A DNA stretch of 64,000 bases from Lentimicrobiaceae bacterium. Its GTDB lineage: Bacteria; Bacteroidota; Bacteroidia; Bacteroidales; UBA4417. The translations under genes were made by a program, and so were the position numbers. Position 1 is the stretch's first letter; each line of letters opens with the position of its first letter. Below, in pieces: positions 7,421 to 50,388 of the stretch. The stretch spans positions 12,450-76,449 of the forward strand of contig JAQVEX010000003.1 of NCBI GenBank assembly GCA_028697555.1, written 5' to 3'. The notes under the pieces were generated by a model. That model saw nothing but the letters and a program-made list of their open reading frames with translations, was not told the origin of the DNA and did not search any database.

Positions 7421-7565
7421 TGGGTGCGGGTTAGTTTTGAGTTTTGAGTTTTGAGTTCCGAGTTCTGAGTTCCGAGTTCCGAGTTCCGAGTCTCCAAACT
7501 CAATACTCTCGACTCAAAACTGACAACTCACCGACCACCGACCACCAACCACCAATCACCCAAAA
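7421..7565. repeat. mosaic heptamer-array intergenic element, copy A (type II, long imperfect hairpin)
   Basis: Fills the whole spacer between the convergent yitT-like and obg genes. Order: TGGGTGCGGGTTAG, then 8 tandem TTYYGAG heptamers (7435-7490), an A/C-rich complement (ACTCAATACTCTCGACTCAAAACTGAC), then 5 tandem CACCRAC heptamers (7529-7563). The outermost TGGGTG pairs with CACCCA. Confidence 0.9.
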
Positions 7566-8558
7566 TTATTCCTCCAACAGCTTCCACAAGTGGTTTTTAA
7601 GCTCGGTTAAGCCTTTTTTGTGATGTGATGAAATAAAAACTGTAGTAATATCCTTTGGTAATTCTTTTTTCAGCATCTCTATCAGTTCGTCGTCTAACAA
7701 ATCTGATTTGCTTACGGCAAGCATCCTTTTCTTATGTACAAGTTCAGGATTGTACATTTGCAATTCGTTTAAAAGAATTTTGTATTCCTTTTTTATACTT
7801 TTCGAATCGGCGGCTATGATGAATAATAATACCGAATTACGTTCAACGTGCCTTAAAAACCTGTGTCCCAAACCTTTGCCTTCGTGAGCTCCTTCAATAA
7901 TACCGGGAATATCTGCCATAATAAACGATTTATAATCGTAGTAAGAAACTATACCCAAATTTGGTCGCAGTGTAGTAAAAGGATAATCGCCTATTTCGGG
8001 TTTTGCTGCCGAAATGGTACTCAACAAAGTTGATTTACCGGCATTTGGGAAACCAACCAAACCCACGTCGGCTAATAGTTTTAGCTCGAAAATAACCCAT
8101 GCCTCGCTACCCGACTCTCCCGGCTGTGCGTATCGTGGAGCTTGATTTGTTGACGATTTAAAATTTATATTTCCAAGTCCGCCTTTGCCGCCTTTAACAA
8201 CTATGTGCTCTTCGTTGTCTTCAACAACTTCGCAAATAGCTTCGCCTGTTTCGGAATCTCTAATTACCGTTCCTAATGGAACTTTAATAACAACATCGTC
8301 GCCATCGGCTCCGGTTTTATTGTTTCCCGAGCCGCCAACTCCGTTTCCGGCATGCAAATGTTTGGTATATTTTAAATGTAGCAATGTCCACAGTTGAGCA
8401 TCTCCTCTGACAATAATATGACCTCCGCGACCGCCGTCGCCGCCGTCGGGACCTCCCTTAGGAATTCCTCTTGCTCTGTAAAAATGAGTCGAACCGCTAC
8501 CGCCATTACCGGAACGGACGTATATTTTTACGTAATCAACAAAGTTCGATAAAGCCAT
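7566..8558 (-). CDS. obg: GTPase Obg/CgtA
   Basis: Glycine-rich Obg fold ([11 protein letters not shown]...[12 protein letters not shown]), G1 motif [10 protein letters not shown]3 motif DIPG. Confidence 0.95.
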
Positions 8559-10486: not shown

Positions 10487-10642
10487 GCGTGTTGCGGGGT
10501 ACGAGTTGCGGGTTAGTTTTGTCCCGAAATTTCGGGACAAAACTGACAACTCACCGACCACCAACCACCAACGACCGATCACTCATCACTAATCACCAAA
10601 AGCTAACGGCTAACGGCTAACGGCTAACAGCCAAAAGCTAAT
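10487..10642. repeat. mosaic heptamer-array intergenic element, copy B (type II)
   Basis: Order: GCGTGTTGCGGGGTACGAGTTGCGGGTTAG, a perfect 30-nt palindrome AGTTTTGTCCCGAAATTTCGGGACAAAACT (10515-10544), a CACCGAC/CACCAAC/CATCACT array, then a GCTAACG x3-4 array. Lies in the divergent hpt/purE spacer. Confidence 0.9.
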
Positions 10643-11232: not shown

Positions 11233-11886
11233 TCAATTCTTGGTAATTATCATAAAGCCGTCACCAATAGGTAGCATGATATTGTTAATATCGCTGCGAT
11301 TTTGCACGTAATTATTGAATTTGGTAACAGCCATTGTGTCTTTATCGGCTATGTTATCAACTGTTCGCAAATACCACAACACATTATCGACTATTATTAT
11401 TCCGTTGTCGCTTAATTTTGGCAATATCAAATCTACTATCGAGCAATAACTTTCTTTGTTAATATCGACGTAAACAATATCGAAACTGTAATTCAAGGTT
11501 TTGATAACATCTTCCGCATTACCTTTTATATATTCGATTTTATCGTCCAAACCTGCTTTCTTAAAGTATTTCAATGCTATTTGCGAAGTCTCGTCGTTGT
11601 AATCAACAGTGAAGAGTTTGCCGTTTTCTTGAAGACCTTGAGCCAAACACAGAGCCGAATATCCGGTAAACGTACCCAAATCTAAAACAAACTTAGGTCT
11701 GATTACTTTGCTCAAAAACTGCAATACTCTACCTTGATGTGGCAATGTAATCATTTGCGGATAAGCCGTTTTTAAGTTTGTTTCTCTGTACAGCTCTTGA
11801 AGCAAAGGCAAATCCTTGCCCGAGTACTTTTCGGCATACTCATCAACTTGCCAATACAACTTTTGCGGATTCGGAATTTTAACCAT
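11233..11886 (-). CDS. class I SAM-dependent O-methyltransferase (caffeoyl-CoA/catechol OMT-like)
   Basis: 217 aa. SAM-binding motif VLDLGTFTGYSAL and FDIVYVD, as in the Methyltransf_3 family. Confidence 0.75.
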   Translation of the reverse strand: MVKIPNPQKLYWQVDEYAEKYSGKDLPLLQELYRETNLKTAYPQMITLPHQGRVLQFLSKVIRPKFVLDLGTFTGYSALCLAQGLQENGKLFTVDYNDETSQIALKYFKKAGLDDKIEYIKGNAEDVIKTLNYSFDIVYVDINKESYCSIVDLILPKLSDNGIIIVDNVLWYLRTVDNIADKDTMAVTKFNNYVQNRSDINNIMLPIGDGFMIITKN

Positions 11887-11897
11887 AACTATTTCAA

Positions 11898-13118
11898 CTA
11901 CTTATAAATAAGAACACTTAATTTATCATCGTCCAAAACCTGATTGGCAACATCGATAATATCGTTTGATGTTACATTATCAATTTTTTCGCAAATTTCA
12001 TCAAAAGTATCAACCTTATCGAATACTGCATACGACTTTACCATACTCAAAATTTCAGCTTGCGACGATTCTATAGCTAACGCCAATTGACCTTTCATCT
12101 GCTTTTTCGCCATACTAATTTTTTGAGCCGATAGCCTATTGTCTCTCAATTTTTTAAATTCTTTTCTAACTATTGATATAGCCTTGTCGGTATTAATACT
12201 ATCGGTTCCCAAATAAAAAGAAAAACTTCCGGTATCGCAATATGCATTGTAATTAGCCTCCAAGTTGTAGGCTATGCCGTTTCTTTCTCTTAAAGCTAAA
12301 GCTAATATTGAGTTCATGGCTGGACCACCCAACATATTGGTTAGTAAACTCAAAGTTACTCTATTTTCGTCGTGCAAGCTGTACGTAACATTGCCAATAA
12401 CAATATGGTTTTGATGACGCGATTTATTCTTTATAACCGTTTGCGGAACATAATTTAAAACAGATTCGGCTTTGATAATTTCCGACCTCCTATTATTATT
12501 GCCGAAACACTTGTGTACCGTGTTTTGCAACTGTTTCATACTTTTTCCGCTAATAGTAGCTATTACCAAATTATTAACCGCGTAATAAGTGTTATAATAA
12601 TCGACAATATCAGCCTGACTTATTTTTTTCACTGTTGATACTTTGCCCAAAATATTAGAGCCCAACGGGTGGTTTTTGAAAAGAACTTCATCAAATGCAT
12701 CGATAATATTGTCGGCAGGACTATCTTTATACGAATTTATTTCGTCGATAACTACATTTTTTTCTTTTTCAATTTCTTTTGCCGGAAAAACCGAATTGAA
12801 AAGCACATCGCTGATTAGTTCGGCAGCTCTCAAAAAATATTCAGTCAGAAAGGAAGCATAAATAGTTGTATCTTCTTTTGTTGTATACGCATTCAAGTCA
12901 GCTCCAACACTTTCTAACCTGTTTAGCACCTGTACATTGTTGCGTTTACTCGTTCCCTTAAATAATACATGCTCAATAAGGTGCGATATTCCCGAAAGAG
13001 AACTGCTTTCATACCTTGAACCGACCTTAACCAAAACAGCAATATGACTAAGTTTTGAGTCCTTCTGCAAATGAATCCATTTTAAACCGTTAGGCAAAAC
13101 CTGATACTGATAGCTCAT
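11898..13118 (-). CDS. M16 family (pitrilysin/insulinase-like) zinc peptidase
   Basis: 406 aa with the inverted zinc motif HLIEH (HxxEH) near the N-terminus and a downstream E in a typical M16 context. Confidence 0.85.
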   Translation of the reverse strand: MSYQYQVLPNGLKWIHLQKDSKLSHIAVLVKVGSRYESSSLSGISHLIEHVLFKGTSKRNNVQVLNRLESVGADLNAYTTKEDTTIYASFLTEYFLRAAELISDVLFNSVFPAKEIEKEKNVVIDEINSYKDSPADNIIDAFDEVLFKNHPLGSNILGKVSTVKKISQADIVDYYNTYYAVNNLVIATISGKSMKQLQNTVHKCFGNNNRRSEIIKAESVLNYVPQTVIKNKSRHQNHIVIGNVTYSLHDENRVTLSLLTNMLGGPAMNSILALALRERNGIAYNLEANYNAYCDTGSFSFYLGTDSINTDKAISIVRKEFKKLRDNRLSAQKISMAKKQMKGQLALAIESSQAEILSMVKSYAVFDKVDTFDEICEKIDNVTSNDIIDVANQVLDDDKLSVLIYK

Positions 13119-13120
13119 AA

Positions 13121-13708
13121 TTATTCTTCCACAAGGTTAAACGCTTTCGGATAGGTATCGTCGGTAAAAATCCAAAACAAAGGTTTGTTGCCTCTAAAAG
13201 TGCCATCTTCGTTGTATATTTCAACAACAGGACAAATACCTTTAACTTTTTTATCTATCTGCAATGTTTTTTTGTCGAAATACCACTCCTCCAAAAATCT
13301 AATTTTAGTTATGTCCTGAACCGAAATTTCCTTAATCAAAACGGTGTCAACCAACTCGTATGGCGGTTGAGCCGACATTACGCTAATAGTATCAACACGG
13401 CGAATTATGGTTTTTACGTCTTCGGCAGATAACTGTCTGTACGAAAAAATGTCGTGAGCAACAACATTCCCGTCGGTAACTTGCTTGAAAATATGTTTAA
13501 CAAATTCCTCTCTTTTTATTCCTTCTATATTGTTTATCCACCAATAGGAGTCGGCACTTACATCACATATAGGAACATCGTACTGAATACGCTTTGTTAG
13601 CTCATCGCCCACCTTATTCTTATCCGATTTGCAAGAAACAATCAGCGTTAAGCATAATGCAAACAGCGAAAATACAACAAGACCTACTTTAATATTAATT
13701 CTATTCAT
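13121..13708 (-). CDS. GldN-like lipoprotein (short paralog of GldN/PorN)
   Basis: 195 aa. Signal peptide plus lipobox (LIVSC). PPYELVDTVLIKE...EEWYFDKKTLQIDKKVKGICPVVEIYNEDGTFRGNKPLFWIF aligns with GldN at 19343-20194 (PPYDYYDTVLVEK...EDWYFDKQRSMLEVRIIGLCPVVDRFNEDGSYRGPSPMFWINF). It lacks the C-terminal ~75 aa of GldN. Confidence 0.7.
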   Translation of the reverse strand: MNRINIKVGLVVFSLFALCLTLIVSCKSDKNKVGDELTKRIQYDVPICDVSADSYWWINNIEGIKREEFVKHIFKQVTDGNVVAHDIFSYRQLSAEDVKTIIRRVDTISVMSAQPPYELVDTVLIKEISVQDITKIRFLEEWYFDKKTLQIDKKVKGICPVVEIYNEDGTFRGNKPLFWIFTDDTYPKAFNLVEE

Positions 13709-13820
13709 ATGTCTTTATTTATGATATTTCTGATTTAATATTTTGTAAAAATAATAATTGTGCAAAACTACTCTAAAAATGCTTGTCAATATTTTTCAAC
13801 TTTTCGATAAAACCTTGAAG

Positions 13821-13917
13821 TGGTGGCAGATGCAATGAGAAATGAGCAATGTACAGTTAACCCCGAAGTTTCGGGGCTAATTACTAATTGTTAATTATTG
13901 ATTCCCACGTACCCCAT
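13821..13917. repeat. mosaic heptamer-array intergenic element, copy C (type I, short)
   Basis: Order: TGGTGG, CAATGAG-like units, hairpin CCCCGAAGTTTCGGGG (13861-13876), CTAATTACTAATTGTTAATTATTG, then CCCACGTACCCC. Colinear with the cores of copies E and F. Lies in the divergent spacer upstream of porP. Confidence 0.85.
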
Positions 13918-14103
13918 TCAATATTAGGGCTTTAAAGTCTAATCTTATAAAACATCTATCATTTTTTTACAATTATGCATTCAAGTTCTGAGTTTTTAGT
14001 TAAATTTGCAAAATAAATACAAGAAAATCTAACGAGTATTCGTTTAATATTGAAAAAGTATTAATTTAGCACGCTTTAAAACAGGAGGTCTATTACTGTA
14101 AAA

Positions 14104-15066
14104 ATGACAAACAAATCATATCTAATAATACTGTTGGTAACGACTGTAATGTTTATAGCGGGTAAGGATTCGTACTCACAGCAAGACCCCCACTTTACGC
14201 ATTACATGTTCAATAGGTCGATATATAATCCTGCAAATTTTGGTCTCTCCGATGGCATTTCGGTTGTTGGAGTTTTTCGCAATCAATGGTTAGGATTTAA
14301 AGACCCTGAGGGAAATATTGTTTCTCCTGTTACCGTAGAAGCAACTGCCGATGCTCCGATAAGGATTTTGCACGGTGGCATAGGCTTTGGAGTTATGCAA
14401 GATAAATTAGGTTTTACCTCCAATTTAGATGTGAAGCTAGGATATGCCTTTCACGCGTACATAGGCAATAATTTGTTGAGCATAGGAGCAAACGTCGACC
14501 TTAACAATGTAAGCCACGATAATTCTAAATACATTACCACCGATAACGAACCTGTTAACTTAGGTGGTAACGATAAAGGCGCTGTTGTTACCGATATGGC
14601 TGTCGGATTAATATTTAAAAATCCTAAGTACTACATTTCGCTATCATCAAACAAGGTTTTGGAAACAAAAAAAGAGTTGGAAGGACAAAGTTCCATTGCC
14701 CTGCAGAACAGAAGGCATTATTATGCTAACGTTGGTTACAACTTTACATTACCAGCCTACCCCAACTTTGTATTTATGCCAACAGCCTTAATATACAGCG
14801 ATGGAAAAGTTTTTCAAACAAATTTTATGGCAATGGCAAAATATAATAATAAAATTTGGGGCGGAGTTGGGTATCGTTTTCAAGATGCAATAAACCTTAT
14901 TATAGGAACAGAATTTAACGACATAGAAATAGGTTACGCTTTTGACATACCTATTAGTGGGCTTGGGATAAGGACATTTGGGTCGCACGAAATAATGATG
15001 AGATATTTATTTAAAATAGAAAGGCAAAAAACTAATACAGGATACAGAAATACAAGATTTTTATAA
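14104..15066 (+). CDS. porP: type IX secretion system membrane protein PorP/SprF family
   Basis: 320 aa. Signal peptide followed by the family-defining QQDPHFTHYMFNRSIYNPA motif, and a beta-barrel-like C-terminus ending in F-L. Immediately upstream of gldK, as in the porP-porKLMN arrangement. Confidence 0.85.
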   Translation: MTNKSYLIILLVTTVMFIAGKDSYSQQDPHFTHYMFNRSIYNPANFGLSDGISVVGVFRNQWLGFKDPEGNIVSPVTVEATADAPIRILHGGIGFGVMQDKLGFTSNLDVKLGYAFHAYIGNNLLSIGANVDLNNVSHDNSKYITTDNEPVNLGGNDKGAVVTDMAVGLIFKNPKYYISLSSNKVLETKKELEGQSSIALQNRRHYYANVGYNFTLPAYPNFVFMPTALIYSDGKVFQTNFMAMAKYNNKIWGGVGYRFQDAINLIIGTEFNDIEIGYAFDIPISGLGIRTFGSHEIMMRYLFKIERQKTNTGYRNTRFL

Positions 15067-15200
15067 TATTTTTTGTATCTTATAAAATAAAAAAAATATA
15101 AACTCGTTATAAGAAAGACTAAACTAAATCAGACCAACGCAAACACAATAAATTTAAGTTTTTTGCGTTGTAAAAAAACTAACTAAGAATTAAATTTTTC

Positions 15201-16562
15201 ATGATGAAGAAGCTAATATTCGTTTTATTAATAGGTATAGCTGCTTATAGCTGTAAAAACAATGGCAACGGCGAATTAATAGGAGTACAAAACAGAGGTA
15301 AATTTTTCCAACCCGATCCCTACGGAATGGCATACGTGCCAATGGGTAGCTATGCACAAGGTGCAGGCGAAGAAGATGCTTTTTATTCTTTTCAAAATAT
15401 GCCTCGTACCATAACCGTATCGGCTTTTTATATGGACGAAACGGAAATTACAAACAATGAGTATAGGCAATTTGTGTACTACGTTCGCGATTCTATTGCA
15501 AGAACATTGCTTGGCGAAATCAATCCCGAAGAATTCCTAATCTCAGAAAACAAAAAAACAGGCGAAATCTACGACCCGCCATACCTTAATTGGGAAACAA
15601 AAATTGATTTAAGAAATCAGGAGGTAGTTGAAGCTCTCGAACCATTGTACGTTCCCGAAAATGAAAGGTATTTCAGAAAAAAAGAAATTGACGCCAGAAA
15701 ATTATTCTACGAATACTATTTTGTAGATCTATTAGCAGCTTCAAAGAAAAACTTTAAGGAAACAAGCGACCCCAAAAATGCCAACTTTGCTAATAGGCAT
15801 CAAGGTATGAGAGACCGTTCGGTTTACGTTCGTAAAGAAGTTATAAACGTTTATCCCGATACTTTATCTTGGCTACACGACTACTCGTATAGCTACAACG
15901 ACCCTATTGCAAAGATGTACTTTTCGCATCCGGGCTACGATCATTATCCGGTTGTGGGAGTTAGTTGGAAACAAGCCAACGCATTTTGCGTATGGAGAAC
16001 ACGCCTGCTAGAAACGGGTATGAAAAACAGAAAAAAAGGTGCTATGCCTGCAGAGTTCCGTTTACCAACCGAGGCAGAATGGGAATGGGCAGCCAGAGGT
16101 GGAAACACATTCAGCCCTTACCCTTGGGGAGGACCTTATACACGTAACGATAAAGGCTGTTTCTTGGCTAACTTTAAACCACTTAGAGGTAATTACGTCG
16201 ACGATGGAGGAGCCAGAACAATTATAGTTGCACACTATCCGGCTAACGATTTCGGACTTTACGATATGGCAGGCAACGTTGCTGAATGGTGCGTTGATGC
16301 ATACGACGAATCGGCTACACAATTTACTTGGGATATGAACCCAACGTACCAGTACAATGCCAAAGAAGACGACCCTGCAATACTTAAAAGAAAAGTAATC
16401 AGAGGCGGCTCATGGAAAGATATTGCTTATTATCTGCAAGTTAACACCAGATCGTACGAATACCAAGATTCTGCCAAATGCTACATAGGTTTCCGTTGCG
16501 TACAAGACTTCATTGGACGTCAGAAAAACGATAACCCCGCAAAGGCATCAAGAATATACTAA
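15201..16562 (+). CDS. gldK: gliding motility/T9SS lipoprotein GldK (PorK)
   Basis: 453 aa. Lipoprotein signal (AAYSCKNN) and an FGE-sulfatase/SUMF1-like domain (VVGVSWKQANAFCVWR, LPTEAEWEWAARGG, RGGSW). Followed by gldL, gldM and gldN. Confidence 0.92.
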   Translation: MMKKLIFVLLIGIAAYSCKNNGNGELIGVQNRGKFFQPDPYGMAYVPMGSYAQGAGEEDAFYSFQNMPRTITVSAFYMDETEITNNEYRQFVYYVRDSIARTLLGEINPEEFLISENKKTGEIYDPPYLNWETKIDLRNQEVVEALEPLYVPENERYFRKKEIDARKLFYEYYFVDLLAASKKNFKETSDPKNANFANRHQGMRDRSVYVRKEVINVYPDTLSWLHDYSYSYNDPIAKMYFSHPGYDHYPVVGVSWKQANAFCVWRTRLLETGMKNRKKGAMPAEFRLPTEAEWEWAARGGNTFSPYPWGGPYTRNDKGCFLANFKPLRGNYVDDGGARTIIVAHYPANDFGLYDMAGNVAEWCVDAYDESATQFTWDMNPTYQYNAKEDDPAILKRKVIRGGSWKDIAYYLQVNTRSYEYQDSAKCYIGFRCVQDFIGRQKNDNPAKASRIY

Positions 16563-16619
16563 TAGAAAATAATCACAAATTAATAATTAATAAATAATCA
16601 ACAATTAAACATAACTAAA

Positions 16620-17693
16620 ATGGGACTACAAAGTATTGTAACAAGTAAAGGATATAAACTTTTCATGGCTAAGCTCTACGGGATAGGAGCTGCAGTAGCT
16701 ATTACAGGAGCACTTTTTAAAATTGTACACTTACCGGGAGCAAATATTATGCTTATAGCCGGTCTTTCGGCGGAGGCTATAATATTCTTTTTCTCTGCGT
16801 TCGAACCACCTTACGTTGAACCAGACTGGTCTCTGGTGTACCCGGAATTAGCAGGTATGTACGAACACATGCGTCCCACCAAAAAAGAAAAAAAAGTCAA
16901 GGATAAAGATAAAAAACAAGTAACTGCTCCAGGTGTAGCAAAAACGCCAACACAGGAACTTGACGATATGCTTACACAAGCCAAGATAGGACCGGAACTT
17001 ATCGAAAGTTTAGGAGAAGGCATGAGAAGAATGAGCGAAAATGTTAGCAAAATGTCAAATGTTACCGATTCGGCAATTACATCCGACACCTTTGTCAGAA
17101 ATGTAACCGAAGCAAGTAAATCGGCTAGCGAGCTTTCAAAATCGTACCAAAATATGGGTAGAGTGTTAGATGAAGATGCAAAAGTTACAGGAGAATTTTC
17201 TAATAGCATTAAATCGGCTGCAAGTACTGCAAGCAACTTAGCTCAAACATACGAAGAAGTTTCGGGTGCTATTAAAAAGGAAATTAATGTAGCACAAACA
17301 TTTTCAAACACAATGTCGGAAGCAGCAAATTCGGCAAATAATTTAGTACAAAAATATAATGAGTCCGCTGAATTGTTATCGAAATCAGCTGATATACTTA
17401 ATTTTAGTGCTTCCGATAGTAAAAACTACAACGAACAGCTACAAAAAATTTCAAACAACCTTGCAACGTTGAACAATATATATGAAATGCAAGTTAAGTC
17501 TGTTACATCTCAAGTTGATTCCAGCAAAGAACTTACTAACTCAGTAAGTAACTTCCTTTCAACTCTTGAAACTTCAGCCAAAAACATGGATAACTATCAA
17601 AAAGAACTTAGTGCACTTACTCAAAGAGTTGCGGCTCTTAACCAAGTGTACGGTAATATGTTATCGGCAATGAACTTCAATCCAAAAAACTAA
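16620..17693 (+). CDS. gldL: gliding motility/T9SS protein GldL (PorL), long form
   Basis: Two N-terminal TM helices with the GldL signature (KLYGIGAAVAITGALFKIVHLPGAN...AEAIIFFFSAFEP) and a conserved C-terminus (LNQVYGNMLSAMN). The cytoplasmic part is extended and repetitive. Confidence 0.9.
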   Translation: MGLQSIVTSKGYKLFMAKLYGIGAAVAITGALFKIVHLPGANIMLIAGLSAEAIIFFFSAFEPPYVEPDWSLVYPELAGMYEHMRPTKKEKKVKDKDKKQVTAPGVAKTPTQELDDMLTQAKIGPELIESLGEGMRRMSENVSKMSNVTDSAITSDTFVRNVTEASKSASELSKSYQNMGRVLDEDAKVTGEFSNSIKSAASTASNLAQTYEEVSGAIKKEINVAQTFSNTMSEAANSANNLVQKYNESAELLSKSADILNFSASDSKNYNEQLQKISNNLATLNNIYEMQVKSVTSQVDSSKELTNSVSNFLSTLETSAKNMDNYQKELSALTQRVAALNQVYGNMLSAMNFNPKN

Positions 17694-17718
17694 CAACTAA
17701 TACTTGAAAATTTAACAA

Positions 17719-19278
17719 ATGGCTGCATATAAGGAAACACCCAGACAAAAGATGATAGCAATGTTGTATCTTATACTCACTGCTATGTTGGCTCTTAATG
17801 TCTCCGTTGAACTATTGAACGCGTTTTTGATTGTCAACGAAACTATTGCCAAAACAAATGAGACTTTCGATGCAAAAACGGGAGAACTTTATACAAGATT
17901 TGAAAAATATAACTCCGATAATCCTGAAAAAGTAACCCCTTTCTGGAATAAGGCTTTAGAAGCAAAAGCTTTATCCAAAGAACTTAAAGATTATGTTAAT
18001 GAAACAAAATACGAACTTATCTCCATTGCTGAAGGAATTACAAAAGAAGAAGCTAAAACTATTGCTCTTCGCGATATTAAGAAGAAAGATAAGTACGACA
18101 CACCTACCAGATTTTTTATTGGCAACTCTAATGACGGTTCTGCCGGTAAAGCCGGAGAAATGAGAAAGAAAATTGAAAAGTACAAAGAAGATATTATGAA
18201 CTTGGTAGAGCCCGAAAAGAGAGGTATGATAAAAATTGGTTTGGATACAGAAGGTCCATTCTACGACGCAGGCAGAACACAACAAAATTGGGAAATGTAT
18301 AATTTTTATCATACCATATTGGCTGCCGACGTTGCTATATTAAACAACATTGTAGGCGAAATTCAAAATATCGAATATGACGTTGTAAACCACCTTATGG
18401 CTGAAATTGGAGCATCGGACTTTAAAATTGACCAAATAGGTGCTACGGTTGTTCCTAAGAGTCAGTACGTTTTCCAAGGCGAAAACTACGAAGCTGAAGT
18501 GTTTGTTACCGCTATGGATACCAAACAAAGCTTTTCGGCTAACATAGGTGGTGTAAGTCGTTCGAGTGAAAATGGAGTTATTAAAATCTCCCTTCCTTCA
18601 ACTTCGCCCGGACCTAAAAAAGTAACCGGAACCGTGTTTTTCAAAAAACCCGACGGAACCGACGTTACTGCTCCCGTTGAATTTGATTATATCGTCGCTC
18701 CTCCTTCATTAGCCGTTTCGGCAACCAAAATGAATGTATTTTACGTAGGTGTTGACAATCCTGTAACAATTTCGGCAGGCGGTGTTTCTCCCGATCAAAT
18801 TACCGCTACTACTAACAACGGTCAGATTGTTAGAAGCGGAAGCGACTGGATAGTCAGACCAGCAACAGCAGGAGCTTCAAAAATAACTGTAAATGCCCAA
18901 CTTGACGGTAGAGTGAAGAGTATGGGTAGCGTTGATTATAGGGTAAAATATGTGCCAAGTCCAACTGCAATGATAGCTAACATTAATGAAGGTGCTATAA
19001 CTAAGGACAGACTTATTGCCGCACGAGCTATTATCCCTAAAATGCCCGACGATTTTGAATTCGATTTATATTTCGTTATTACTTCTTTCAATTTTTCAGG
19101 AAATAGAAGGGGAGACATTATTGACTTGCCAAGTAAAGGCAATACTCTAACTCCTGAGATGATTGACTTTATTAGAAATGCCAGAACTAGAGAACAAATT
19201 ACGATCAACGATATTCAAGCCAAAGGTCCCGATGGCAGAACCAGAAGACTTACTCCAATTGTTCTAACTATACAATAA
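17719..19278 (+). CDS. gldM: gliding motility/T9SS protein GldM (PorM)
   Basis: 519 aa. N-terminal ETPRQKMIAMLYLILTAMLALNVS single TM signature of GldM, then a long periplasmic region. Confidence 0.92.
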   Translation: MAAYKETPRQKMIAMLYLILTAMLALNVSVELLNAFLIVNETIAKTNETFDAKTGELYTRFEKYNSDNPEKVTPFWNKALEAKALSKELKDYVNETKYELISIAEGITKEEAKTIALRDIKKKDKYDTPTRFFIGNSNDGSAGKAGEMRKKIEKYKEDIMNLVEPEKRGMIKIGLDTEGPFYDAGRTQQNWEMYNFYHTILAADVAILNNIVGEIQNIEYDVVNHLMAEIGASDFKIDQIGATVVPKSQYVFQGENYEAEVFVTAMDTKQSFSANIGGVSRSSENGVIKISLPSTSPGPKKVTGTVFFKKPDGTDVTAPVEFDYIVAPPSLAVSATKMNVFYVGVDNPVTISAGGVSPDQITATTNNGQIVRSGSDWIVRPATAGASKITVNAQLDGRVKSMGSVDYRVKYVPSPTAMIANINEGAITKDRLIAARAIIPKMPDDFEFDLYFVITSFNFSGNRRGDIIDLPSKGNTLTPEMIDFIRNARTREQITINDIQAKGPDGRTRRLTPIVLTIQ

Positions 19279-19342: not shown

Positions 19343-20194
19343 ATGAAACAAATAATCATAATATTGGCAGCTGTACTATGCATAACTATAAGTAGTTATT
19401 CGCAGGCTATATTAAATACTCCTCCATTAGATGGAGTAATAGATAAAACGGAACGTTTCGAAAAAGAACCTGTGCCTTATGCTTATGTTCGCACATCTGA
19501 CTATGTATGGGAACGCCGTATATGGAGAACCATTGACTTCAAAGAAAAAATGAATCAAGTAATGTACTATCCCGAAGTGCCACACAACAATTGGCGTAAC
19601 TTTATAACCGTCATTATGGACGCTCTTCGTGAAGGAACACTTACCGCATACGATGCTACATCTGCAACAGACGAGTTTACAACTCCTTTAAGCTACAAAG
19701 AACTTATGGAGAGAACCGACCGTACGCAAACTGTACAGCTTCAAAGAAACTATCCTCCATACGACTACTACGATACGGTTTTGGTTGAAAAATTCAATCC
19801 TTCGCATGTTAAATCACTACGTATTAAAGAAGATTGGTATTTCGACAAACAACGTTCCATGCTTGAAGTCAGAATTATAGGTCTTTGTCCGGTAGTCGAC
19901 CGCTTTAATGAAGACGGCTCATATAGAGGTCCTTCGCCAATGTTTTGGATAAACTTTGCCGAAGCCAGACCAGTTCTTGCCAAAGCCGAAGTGTTTAACA
20001 GATTTAACGGTGCCGCTCGTATGTCGTACGATGAGTTTTTCTGGAAAAGAATGTTTTCAAGCTACATTACTAAAGTTGATAACCAGTACGACAGAAGTAT
20101 TGCCGAATACGCTACAGGTATGGATGCTGTGCTTGAATCGCAAAGAATTAAAGATGAATTGCTCAACTTTGAGCAAAACTTGTGGGAATACTAA
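19343..20194 (+). CDS. gldN: gliding motility/T9SS protein GldN (PorN)
   Basis: 283 aa. Signal peptide, conserved EDWYFDKQRS...GLCPV...FW block, last gene of the gldKLMN operon. Confidence 0.9.
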   Translation: MKQIIIILAAVLCITISSYSQAILNTPPLDGVIDKTERFEKEPVPYAYVRTSDYVWERRIWRTIDFKEKMNQVMYYPEVPHNNWRNFITVIMDALREGTLTAYDATSATDEFTTPLSYKELMERTDRTQTVQLQRNYPPYDYYDTVLVEKFNPSHVKSLRIKEDWYFDKQRSMLEVRIIGLCPVVDRFNEDGSYRGPSPMFWINFAEARPVLAKAEVFNRFNGAARMSYDEFFWKRMFSSYITKVDNQYDRSIAEYATGMDAVLESQRIKDELLNFEQNLWEY

Positions 20195-35572: not shown

Positions 35573-35775
35573 TGGTACGGGTTACGGGTTGCGGGGTGCG
35601 GGGTGCGGGTTAGTCCCGAAGTTTCGGAAGAGTTACGAGTTATGAGTCGGGAGTTTTGAGTTAGGAGTTAGGAGTTACGAATATTTTTCCTGACTCAGAA
35701 CTCAAAACTCAGAACTAATTCACTAACCACTCATCACCCATCACCCATCACCCATCACCAACCACCGACCACCAC
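35573..35775. repeat. mosaic heptamer-array intergenic element, copy D (type II, long imperfect hairpin)
   Basis: Order: GGTTACG/GGTTGCG/GGGTGCG heptamers, GGGTTAG, hairpin TCCCGAAGTTTCGGA, GAGTTAYG-type units, a loop, complementary CTCAGAACTCAAAACTCAGAAC, then CATCACC x3 and ACCACCGACCACC. Begins right after the stop of the upstream gene. Confidence 0.9.
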
Positions 35776-35790
35776 TTGCACATTTACACA

Positions 35791-44605: not shown

Positions 44606-45247
44606 ATGCAAAGATATACTGTTTATTTTCATCAACGTTGTATCAACTTTTACAGCAACAATAAAGCTTTACGCAAAAAAAACGTTGAAGACAATATTGT
44701 TTACTACAACGCCGAATCAAATTTATTTGATCATGTTTTAAATTTTTTATCTGACGACAAAGGTATAAATTTAACTATAATTGCAAAGAAAAGTGAAATA
44801 AAAAATGCTATAAAAAAGTTCAAATCTTTGTTTATCAAAATTGACGCAGCAGGAGGAATTGTAGTCAATAGCAAACAAGAAATACTGTGGATTTACCGAC
44901 TTGGGAAATGGGATTTACCCAAGGGAAAAATAGAAGAGGGTGAAAGCCGAAAAAATGCCGCTTTAAGAGAGGTTGAAGAAGAAACAGGACTTAGCAACCT
45001 AACTATTTTAAGAAAATTGGGAGTTACAAGGCATATTTTTTCAAAAAAAGAAAAATACCATTTAAAACATACGCATTGGTTTTTGATGTATTGTGCAGAT
45101 AATAGCGAGCCAATACCACAAACAGAAGAAGATATACAAATTGTAAAGTGGTTGGATAGGGATAAAAGTTTAGTATGTATAAACAACACATATGACTCTA
45201 TTAAAGATTTGCTGTTGGAAATTGATATTGATAATTTGTTTTTATGA
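44606..45247 (+). CDS. NUDIX hydrolase
   Basis: Nudix box GKIEEGESRKNAALREVEEETGL. Start placed at the ATG at 44606 (MQRYTVYF...) because the track's longer ORF (44474) overlaps pyrE on the opposite strand. Confidence 0.8.
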   Translation: MQRYTVYFHQRCINFYSNNKALRKKNVEDNIVYYNAESNLFDHVLNFLSDDKGINLTIIAKKSEIKNAIKKFKSLFIKIDAAGGIVVNSKQEILWIYRLGKWDLPKGKIEEGESRKNAALREVEEETGLSNLTILRKLGVTRHIFSKKEKYHLKHTHWFLMYCADNSEPIPQTEEDIQIVKWLDRDKSLVCINNTYDSIKDLLLEIDIDNLFL

Positions 45248-45258
45248 TTAATTAGCTA

Positions 45259-45600
45259 TTGGTGAATGGTGGTGGGTGAATGGTGGTGGGTGAATGGTGG
45301 TGAGTGATGGGTGGTGAGTGATGGGTGGTGAGTGATGGGTGGTGAGTGATGGGTGGTGAGTGATGGGTGGTGAGTGATGGGTGGTGAGTGGTGGCTTATA
45401 TCAATTATCAATTATCAATTATCAATTATCAATTATCAATGAACAATGAACCCCGAAACTTCGGGACTAATTACTAATTGTTAATTGCTAATTAAAAATT
45501 ACCACGTAACACGCAACACGTAACCCGCAACACGCAACACGCAACACGCAACCCGCAACCCGAACCCGCCAACAGCTAACAGCTAAAGGCTAAAAGCTGC
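45259..45600. repeat. mosaic heptamer-array intergenic element, copy E (type I, largest, ~340 bp)
   Basis: 3 x GGTGAATGGTGGTG plus 6 x AGTGATGGGTGGTG (nine contiguous 14-mers, 45261-45386). 5 x ATCAATT plus ATCAATG plus AACAATG (45400-45448). Hairpin CCCGAAACTTCGGG (45452-45465). CTAATTA/CTAATTG/TTAATTG units. ACACGCA/ACCCGCA heptamers (45502-45570). AACAGCT/AAAGGCT units (45571-45598). Confidence 0.95.
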
Positions 45601-49607: not shown

Positions 49608-49780
49608 CTTGGCTGTTAGCTGTTAGCTCTTAGCCTTTAGCTGTTGGCAATGAGCAATGAGCAATGAGCAATGAGCAATGAACACCGAAACTTCGGGGTT
49701 AATTATTAATTGATAATTGTTAATTGAAAATTGCCACGCACCTCGAAACCCGCAACCCGCAACCCGTACCAACCACCACC
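49608..49780. repeat. mosaic heptamer-array intergenic element, copy F (type I)
   Basis: Order: GCTGTTA/GCTCTTA units, 5 x GCAATGA (49647-49681), hairpin CCGAAACTTCGG (49685-49696), TTAATTA/TTAATTG/ATAATTG units, CCACGCACC, CCGCAAC x2-3, then ACCAACCACCACC. Fills the whole spacer between the convergent hypothetical gene and udk. Confidence 0.95.
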
Positions 49781-50388
49781 TACTGTAGCTTCATCAAAAT
49801 GCCTGAAACAATCAAATCTATTGCGTTGTCGTTTTCGCCGCCTTGCGGGACGATAATATCTGCCAGACGCTTGCATGGCTCTATAAACTGCAAATGCATA
49901 GGTTTTACCCATTTATAGTAGTGTTCTAAGACTTGCTCTACAGAGCGTCCTCTTTCAACAGTGTCACGTCCGATAATTCTGGCGAGTCTATCGTCGCTTT
50001 CGGCATCAACAAAGACTTTTAGGTCTAACAAATCTACCAATTTTCTATTTGTAAAAACCATTATGCCTTCTATAATAATTATATCGCTGGGCAAAACTGT
50101 TATTGTTTCGGTTAAACGCGAAGAGGTAATATATGAATATGTAGGCATTTCAATTGCCTTTCCGTTGCGCAACTGTTTTACGTGCTCTATCAACAATGAC
50201 CATTCAAAAGAATCGGGGTGGTCGAAATTTACGTTCAGTTTTTCCTGAGCCGTCAGATGCGAACTATCTTTATAGTAAGAATCTAACGATATTGTTGAAA
50301 TAGAATCGGTTGGTAGTTGTTTTACAATTTTTCTAACCACCGTAGTTTTACCACTACCTGAGCCACCGGCAACACCAATAATAAACAT
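49780..50388 (-). CDS. udk: uridine kinase
   Basis: 202 aa. P-loop GVAGGSGSGKTT and the NFDHPDSFE motif. Confidence 0.92.
   Translation of the reverse strand: MFIIGVAGGSGSGKTTVVRKIVKQLPTDSISTISLDSYYKDSSHLTAQEKLNVNFDHPDSFEWSLLIEHVKQLRNGKAIEMPTYSYITSSRLTETITVLPSDIIIIEGIMVFTNRKLVDLLDLKVFVDAESDDRLARIIGRDTVERGRSVEQVLEHYYKWVKPMHLQFIEPCKRLADIIVPQGGENDNAIDLIVSGILMKLQ

Follow-up and report, generated by a model that had tools for sequence, protein, structure and literature searches.

The window analysed here is a stretch of 64,000 nucleotides from a Lentimicrobiaceae bacterium. It carries the T9SS core operon porP-gldK-gldL-gldM-gldN and, transcribed divergently from it, a short gene whose product resembles GldN and begins with a lipobox-type signal. 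The question raised by this locus is what a short, lipid-anchored relative of GldN is. It could be the remnant of a duplicated gldN, a spare subunit of the GldK/GldN ring, or a protein with a function of its own. The initial annotation described it as a truncated paralogue of GldN. The product begins MNRINIKVGLVVFSLFALCLTLIVSC and is 100% identical to the database protein P0001, which is named 'hypothetical protein, Lentimicrobiaceae bacterium'. The features of the locus are collected in Table 1.

Table 1. Features of the short lipoprotein gene, its neighbours, and the divergent T9SS operon in the window
Feature	Coordinates	Strand	Basis
CDS, GldN-core-only lipoprotein, 195 aa	13121..13708 (including stop codon)	-	ORF list, ATG start
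Signal peptide and lipobox, residues 1-26, I-V-S-C26	13631..13708	-	Read from sequence
Short tether and family-specific N-terminal segment, residues 27-64	13517..13630	-	Alignment of 21 members, AF2 model
GldN/PorN-homologous core, residues 65-189	13142..13516	-	hhalign, Pfam PF19841, PorN profile match, Foldseek
M16 peptidase gene, 406 aa, without a visible signal peptide	11898..13118	-	Pfam Peptidase_M16 and M16_C
Class I O-methyltransferase gene (Methyltransf_3), third of the cluster	11233..11886	-	Pfam
Divergent spacer between the short gene and porP, 395 bp	13709..14103	.	Sequence, consensus scan, repeat family
porP, gldK, gldL, gldM, divergent from the short gene	14104..19278	+	TIGR03519, TIGR03525, TIGR03513, TIGR03517, above cut-off
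Full-length GldN, 283 aa, last gene of porP-gldK-gldL-gldM-gldN	19343..20194	+	TIGR03523 248 bits, Pfam 253.6 bits

The short protein is a homologue of GldN. In BLASTP, its residues 69-180 align with residues 87-203 of the window GldN (E=3e-25, 33% identity over 117 aa). The alignment holds all of the motifs that had been picked out by eye, namely PPY..DTVL, E(E/D)WYFDK, G(I/L)CPVV, NEDG..RG, and P(L/M)FWI. Family models agree. Against Pfam PF19841 (GldN), the protein scores a significant 56.2 bits over a gathering threshold of 23, and the match spans profile positions 31-151 of 228 only. Against the NCBIfam GldN equivalog TIGR03523, it scores 42.8 bits, under the cut-off of 85.9, and the window GldN scores 248. 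Profile-profile comparison of the two family alignments with hhalign pairs residues 65-189 with GldN 83-212 (probability 99.9, E=2.8e-33).

The hhalign match stops at both ends, so residues 27-64 have no GldN homology that sequence comparison can detect, and the final 71 residues of GldN lack a counterpart in the short protein. The N-terminal third had been described as different from that of GldN, which holds at the sequence level; homology of this third was considered and rejected, as hhalign never reaches before residue 65. A T-x-R likeness to S/T51-x-R53 of PorN, seen by eye, was dropped because it is not invariant across the family. The C-terminal shortfall had been put at about 75 aa. 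The protein is indeed shorter than GldN, and the figure is corrected to 71 residues.

The core is composed of two helices and a six-strand beta-meander and contains the motifs PPY, DT, RFLEEW, G-I-C-P, and PLFWI. The AlphaFold (AF2) model of the short protein has a mean pLDDT of 82.8. A Foldseek search of the PDB retrieves five chains of PorN (7PVH, 9OTS, 9MYJ, 9MZU) at probability 1.0, with the next match at E=0.2. Other folds were rejected, since this search gives PorN alone. The profile of the short family also matches the PorN chains 7pvh, 9ots, 9mzu, and 9myj. TMq against PorN is 0.41-0.44 for the short protein and 0.46-0.50 for a control model of the window GldN. The control scores little higher, so modest TM values are normal for a comparison with PorN. 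This control model has a modest pLDDT of 65.9 and was used solely for secondary-structure order and TM calibration.

In the region that the two proteins share, the models have an identical order of elements, i.e., strand, helix, helix, six strands. Beyond it, GldN continues with four helices, a strand at 243-246, and a long terminal helix at 253-282, and the short protein is without these. The N-terminal segment of the short protein contains a strand (residues 35-46) with the invariant motif I41-Q-Y-D-V45, followed by W56, W57, N60, G63, and R66. A separate observation concerns the cysteine of the G-I-C-P motif (Cys182 in GldN, Cys159 in the short protein). It is 99% conserved in 121 GldN sequences and 46% conserved in 108 short proteins, a pattern that suggests it may have a GldN-specific role.

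The short protein belongs to a large family. A homology search of 5.8 billion proteins finds 351 relatives, most of them 175-195 aa in length, and the best match, 100% identical, comes from a Lentimicrobiaceae MAG. With one genome counted per species, 204 loci are confirmed, and every one belongs to an assembly of uncultured Bacteroidales, Lentimicrobiaceae or Lentimicrobium. Across 21 diverse members, 16 columns are invariant: Cys26, I41-Q-Y-D-V45, W56, N60, R66, P116, R137, F138, E140, W142, K153, and W179. A cysteine stands ahead of the IQYDV motif in 118/120 family proteins, and both exceptions are 5'-truncated ORFs. Compared with the 84%-identical orthologue in genome L006, dN/dS is 0.12.

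These figures decide whether the gene is a decaying remnant of a gldN duplicate or an artefact of annotation. Such an origin would suit a protein that is shorter than GldN and annotated as hypothetical only. Against it stand hundreds of intact orthologues of the same length that keep the lipobox cysteine and the motifs, a family-specific and conserved N-terminal segment, and a confident AF2 model. Family size, intact lengths, invariant motifs, and the low dN/dS exclude the pseudogene reading, which is left with practically no probability. The short protein is intact, conserved, and under purifying selection. The initial annotation had named two ways in which its proposal could fail, the lack of a significant match to GldN family models and decay in relatives; the Pfam GldN match is significant, and the relatives are intact. 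Its picture of a one-off truncation is replaced by membership of a large conserved family, and the word 'truncated' does not fit a core-only form that is a stable architecture.

The lipobox had been reported in place of a plain signal peptide, and this reading is upheld. The sequence ...LTL-I-V-S-C26 fits the pattern [LVI][ASTVI][GAS]C after n- and h-regions, and the cysteine is invariant across the family. In Bacteroidota, the signal for surface export is C-X-K-(D/E)2-X, with the variants SDDDD and SDDFE (PMC5080379). This signal was sought after the cysteine, and 0/118 family members fit it. An acidic pair at +2 to +6 is observed in 15/118, and the window protein has C-K-S-D-K-N. From these sequence features we infer a putatively lipidated, periplasm-facing protein of either the outer or the inner membrane. 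The beginning of strand 1 in PorN points to PorK, as does the turn of the hairpin, so a lipid anchor at this end would keep the polarity that GldN has beneath GldK.

A lipid-anchored GldN core could be an alternative or accessory subunit of the GldK/GldN ring, i.e., a short GldO-like paralogue that caps or seeds assembly. The retained core fold and beta-hairpin and the position opposite porP-gldKLMN in the window, in L006, and in the metagenome contig L086 are in keeping with such a role. The structures of PorN provide the means to weigh it. PorK is bound by three PorN segments, the N-terminal arm L50-W70, the hairpin F179-S184, and E285-V295 (PMC12365241). In another numbering, the PorK-binding elements are residues 25-37, F156-D162, and F271-M279, the PorN-PorN interlock is E235/N236, and PorM D4 cross-links at A241 (PMC12421860). 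The offset between the two numbering schemes was taken from the sequence FTPTNSD. In two-hybrid assays, PorN that is missing its C-terminus loses PorK binding, and the folded core retains its binding to PorM and cargo CTDs (PMC8861641).

In the 361-residue numbering of PorN, the window GldN aligns to residues 63-293 and the short-family profile to residues 97-218. The short protein stops where GldN reaches residue 212, or PorN about 226. The docking helix at the C-terminus, the interlock at E235/N236, and the region of the published PorM contact A241 are therefore all absent. The absent C-terminal subdomain and helix correspond to PorN about 227-295 and GldN 213-283, and this missing quarter holds 24/68 invariant columns of the GldN family. 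At the other end, only about 8 residues lie between Cys26 and strand 1, which leaves no N-terminal arm of the L50-W70 type.

The third PorK-binding element, the hairpin that enters the PorK pocket in PorN, is present. Its turn, F179-S184 in PorN, corresponds to F167-S172 (FDKQRS) in GldN and to residues 144-149 in the short protein. F-D-K-Q-R-S is conserved at 98-100% in 121 GldN sequences and is among the most constrained columns of that family (z about -1.0 to -1.2), whereas the commonest residue at positions 144-149 of the short family reaches 36-68% (108 proteins), which is average for that family. Conserved in both sets of sequences are PPY, DT, RxxE(E/D)W, G-I-x-P, and PLFWI.

Each of the three elements that contact PorK is thus gone or relaxed, which argues against ring incorporation in the style of GldN. 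The same sequence comparison argues against GldK binding by the short protein. Other points lead in the same direction. On the dimensions of the published ring, the 8-15-residue tether would place the module level with the 43-Angstrom PorK layer and not beneath it (PMC12421860). The protein scores under the GldN equivalog cut-off, and most genomes are without T9SS linkage. A role as a ring subunit is considered very unlikely.

GldO of Flavobacterium johnsoniae is a full-length GldN paralogue, for which partial redundancy with GldN is reported. Like the short gene, gldO accompanies gldN in its genome as a further gene of GldN type. The short protein differs from GldO in being core-only and lipidated and is therefore not expected to be redundant with GldN. 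The comparison with gldO that had been drawn for this locus does not stand, given the loss of the N-terminal arm and of the C-terminal subdomain and helix, the relaxed docking loop, and the sub-threshold equivalog score.

The neighbourhood of the gene bears on a different reading, which makes the GldN core a generic periplasmic domain for interaction or sensing. The short lipoprotein would then have an envelope or housekeeping function, independent of the T9SS and possibly tied to an M16 peptidase and O-methyltransferase cluster. In the window, the short gene is its own divergent transcription unit, outside the gldK-gldL-gldM-gldN operon. The M16 peptidase gene starts 2 nt past the stop codon of the short gene, with no terminator-like site between them, which makes co-transcription likely. 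The order of M16 peptidase and then O-methyltransferase is as first annotated, and both genes have Pfam matches. The 395-bp spacer, also as first annotated, contains a repeat copy. Putative minus-strand promoter sites in the spacer, from a consensus scan, are TTTACA..TATCAT at 13749-13721 and the TAnnTTTG-type TAGTTTTG at 13771-13764. A search of the spacer for RNA elements gave nothing above the Rfam threshold.

The wider context was surveyed at 80 species-level loci, 63 of which have at least 2.5 kb downstream and 54 at least 7 kb upstream. In 52/63 (83%), the short gene is followed directly, on its own strand, by the M16 peptidase gene, the most conserved neighbour of the family. An O-methyltransferase gene comes within the next 3.5 kb in 48/63, and one or the other is present in 56/63 (89%). 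This constancy speaks for the T9SS-independent reading. However, the M16 gene lies a median of about 180 nt away (range 0-746), which suggests separate transcription in many genomes. Neither the M16 peptidase nor the O-methyltransferase has a signal peptide, which makes it unlikely that they are physically linked to a periplasmic lipoprotein in any direct way. With purE and hpt coming after them, these apparently cytoplasmic proteins look like a housekeeping neighbourhood rather than a set of partners, and the gene context points to no partner.

Linkage to the T9SS is confined to a subclade. Core genes of the system are absent within about 7-8 kb in 53 of the 54 upstream-covered loci, which again favours independence. 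The exception is L006, where tblastn finds porP and gldK/L/M/N. The contig L086, which encodes a 51%-identical orthologue, has the divergent porP-gldKLMN layout of the window. T9SS linkage as a family trait was therefore rejected, and facing porP-gldKLMN marks the subclade of the window, L006, and L086. The divergence from the T9SS core operon that was noted at first is real at these three places and is no feature of the family. A conserved upstream partner was also rejected, as clustering of upstream ORFs gave subclade-specific neighbours only. A protein of ~1000 aa with a response-regulator-like N-terminus and PPDK_N is encoded ~1.3 kb upstream on the same strand in 28/63 loci (L002, L003, L007, and others). 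This recurrent neighbour is probably a case of synteny by descent.

The core module is also found in multiple copies and joined to other domains. A profile search of 1.84 billion representative proteins gives 1949 matches at E<=1e-3, of which 115 are at E<=1e-30. Among the best 150 of the 1949 matches, many have 2, 4, 5 or 6 copies of the module. The two-copy lipoproteins P0003, P0004, P0006, P0010, P0018, P0032, and P0037 are 328-340 aa long, and in these the whole short module is exactly duplicated behind one lipobox; P0003 and P0018, e.g., carry two complete IQYDV...FWI units. At the locus of P0018 (L005), an O-methyltransferase gene follows directly, with no M16 peptidase gene.

Larger arrays have plain signal peptides and are made up of four (P0255, P0267), five (P0285, P0308), or six (P0360) modules. 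These five proteins and P0373 are 650-775 aa, contain 4 to 6 modules, and are unannotated and metagenomic. A homology search with the four-copy P0255 gives only 3 proteins. Two array loci on long contigs, L087 and L088, have a housekeeping context with Por_Secre_tail cargo genes near and no T9SS core genes. Fusions are represented by P0309, an XRE-type HTH with a transmembrane helix and one module, which comes from a single 2.3-kb contig and is a possible assembly artefact. P0355 (1386 aa) has many ankyrin repeats and four modules. P0241 and P0278 have a TPR-like N-terminal region with GldN-core modules, two of them in P0241. The arrays and fusions, all of them unannotated proteins from metagenomes, match Pfam GldN over positions ~21-152 alone and fall short, without exception, of the GldN equivalog cut-off. 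Since they keep the core alone, the GldN core behaves as an autonomous domain. GldN itself can be read as this core with ring-assembly extensions.

The reading without the T9SS gains from these proteins, as XRE-type HTH-TM, ankyrin, and TPR-like fusions are typical of a general binding or sensing domain and the arrays of L087 and L088 sit among housekeeping genes. Against it, the fold has no known relatives apart from T9SS ring proteins, and every carrier observed has a genome of Bacteroidota type that contains genes of the T9SS or of its cargo. The window subclade, moreover, has the divergent control region in common with porP-gldKLMN. A function independent of the T9SS is plausible and, on the whole, doubtful.

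The explanation favoured here, which is considered fairly probable, is a selectively maintained, periplasm-facing lipoprotein with one GldN core that serves as a membrane-tethered binding module outside the ring. The parts with which GldN joins the ring are lost, which makes a separate tethered module likelier than a spare ring subunit. The protein would have descended from a GldN-like ancestor in which direct lipid anchoring took over from attachment through GldK, and the GldK-binding elements would have been lost afterwards. The product would be one module of strand 1, two helices, and the six-strand beta-meander, held on a tether of about 8-15 residues.

We infer that this module binds proteins. 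That its ligands are related to the T9SS, e.g., the C-terminal domains of cargo or the tip of GldM, is possible by analogy, with the balance somewhat against it. The idea comes from the binding of PorM and CTDs by the isolated PorN core, which was observed in two-hybrid assays in one study (PMC8861641). The published PorM contact, as described above, falls in the part that the short protein is missing. In a broader and rather unlikely version, the GldN core would be an autonomous, reusable periplasmic recognition domain. Singletons, 2x-6x arrays, and the HTH-TM fusion would then be a T9SS-linked receptor family that holds or senses cargo CTDs or GldM at the membrane. If true, this would give a direct handle on the PorN core's own ligand.

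Among known systems, the closest is GldN/PorN (TIGR03523, PF19841; 7PVH, 9OTS, 9MZU, 9MYJ). It has in common with the short protein the central fold, the order of elements, the motifs PPY, DT, RxxE(E/D)W, G-I-C-P, and PLFWI, and a periplasmic location in Bacteroidota. The short protein differs in its lipobox, in having neither an arm for the PorK groove nor the C-terminal 71 residues, and in its unconserved docking hairpin. It also has an N-terminal motif of its own, IQYDV...WW.N..G..RE, is usually encoded apart from gldKLM, and falls below the equivalog cut-off. GldK/PorK, the partner lipoprotein that fixes the ring to the outer membrane, is likewise lipid-anchored and periplasmic, and the lipid of the short protein would keep the module at the membrane as GldK keeps GldN there. 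The FGE-like fold of GldK is unrelated. The tandem arrays and fusions have the same core-only module, and the two-copy lipoproteins are close relatives with the IQYDV motif. They differ from the short protein in copy number and anchoring, in the plain signal peptides of the 4x-6x forms, and, for the fusions, in the added domains.

The literature was searched for a short lipidated GldN- or PorN-like protein and for tandem arrays of the GldN core, and no description was found, in agreement with the initial annotation, which knew of no such short form. A preprint on the Bacteroidetes BAM names PorN only as a protein with a changed level. The short lipidated family and the core arrays are accordingly new to the searchable literature, and the GldN fold itself is known.

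Three 2025 structures show how PorN is held in the PorK/PorN ring, and the job of the PorN core itself, whether cargo recognition or motor coupling, is still debated. The short protein is a natural separation-of-function variant, in which the core alone is hung from a lipid with the ring contacts stripped away, and its ligand would reveal that of the core. Reuse of the core in tandem arrays and a transmembrane HTH fusion suggests that the role of the GldN fold is wider than ring building. Core-only proteins, now labelled 'hypothetical' or recorded as partial GldN matches, should not count as GldN when the T9SS is inferred from genomes.

Two further observations were made in the window. The GldL encoded at 16620-17693 is 357 aa long, and TIGR03513 covers residues 15-261. 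The rest is a long C-terminal extension with weak matches of coiled-coil type (SpiroCoCo, SMC).

The second concerns the repeat in the divergent spacer. It is a 71-nt intergenic repeat with three copies of 80-82% identity, located at 13833-13903 (between the short gene and porP), 45423-45493, and 49655-49725. It contains a central hairpin, CCCCGAAGTTTCGGGG, followed by CTAATTACTAATTG, and gives nothing above the Rfam threshold. Tandem arrays with a start-to-start spacing of 14 nt are present at 45234-45408, 45489-45592, 7515-7583, 10538-10608, 35721-35777, and 49735-49782. Arrays of this spacing flank copies of the 71-nt repeat, with heptamer-like units GTGATGG/GTGAATG on one side and CACGCAA/CACCGAC types on the other. 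Together, the repeat and the arrays look like a composite intergenic element.
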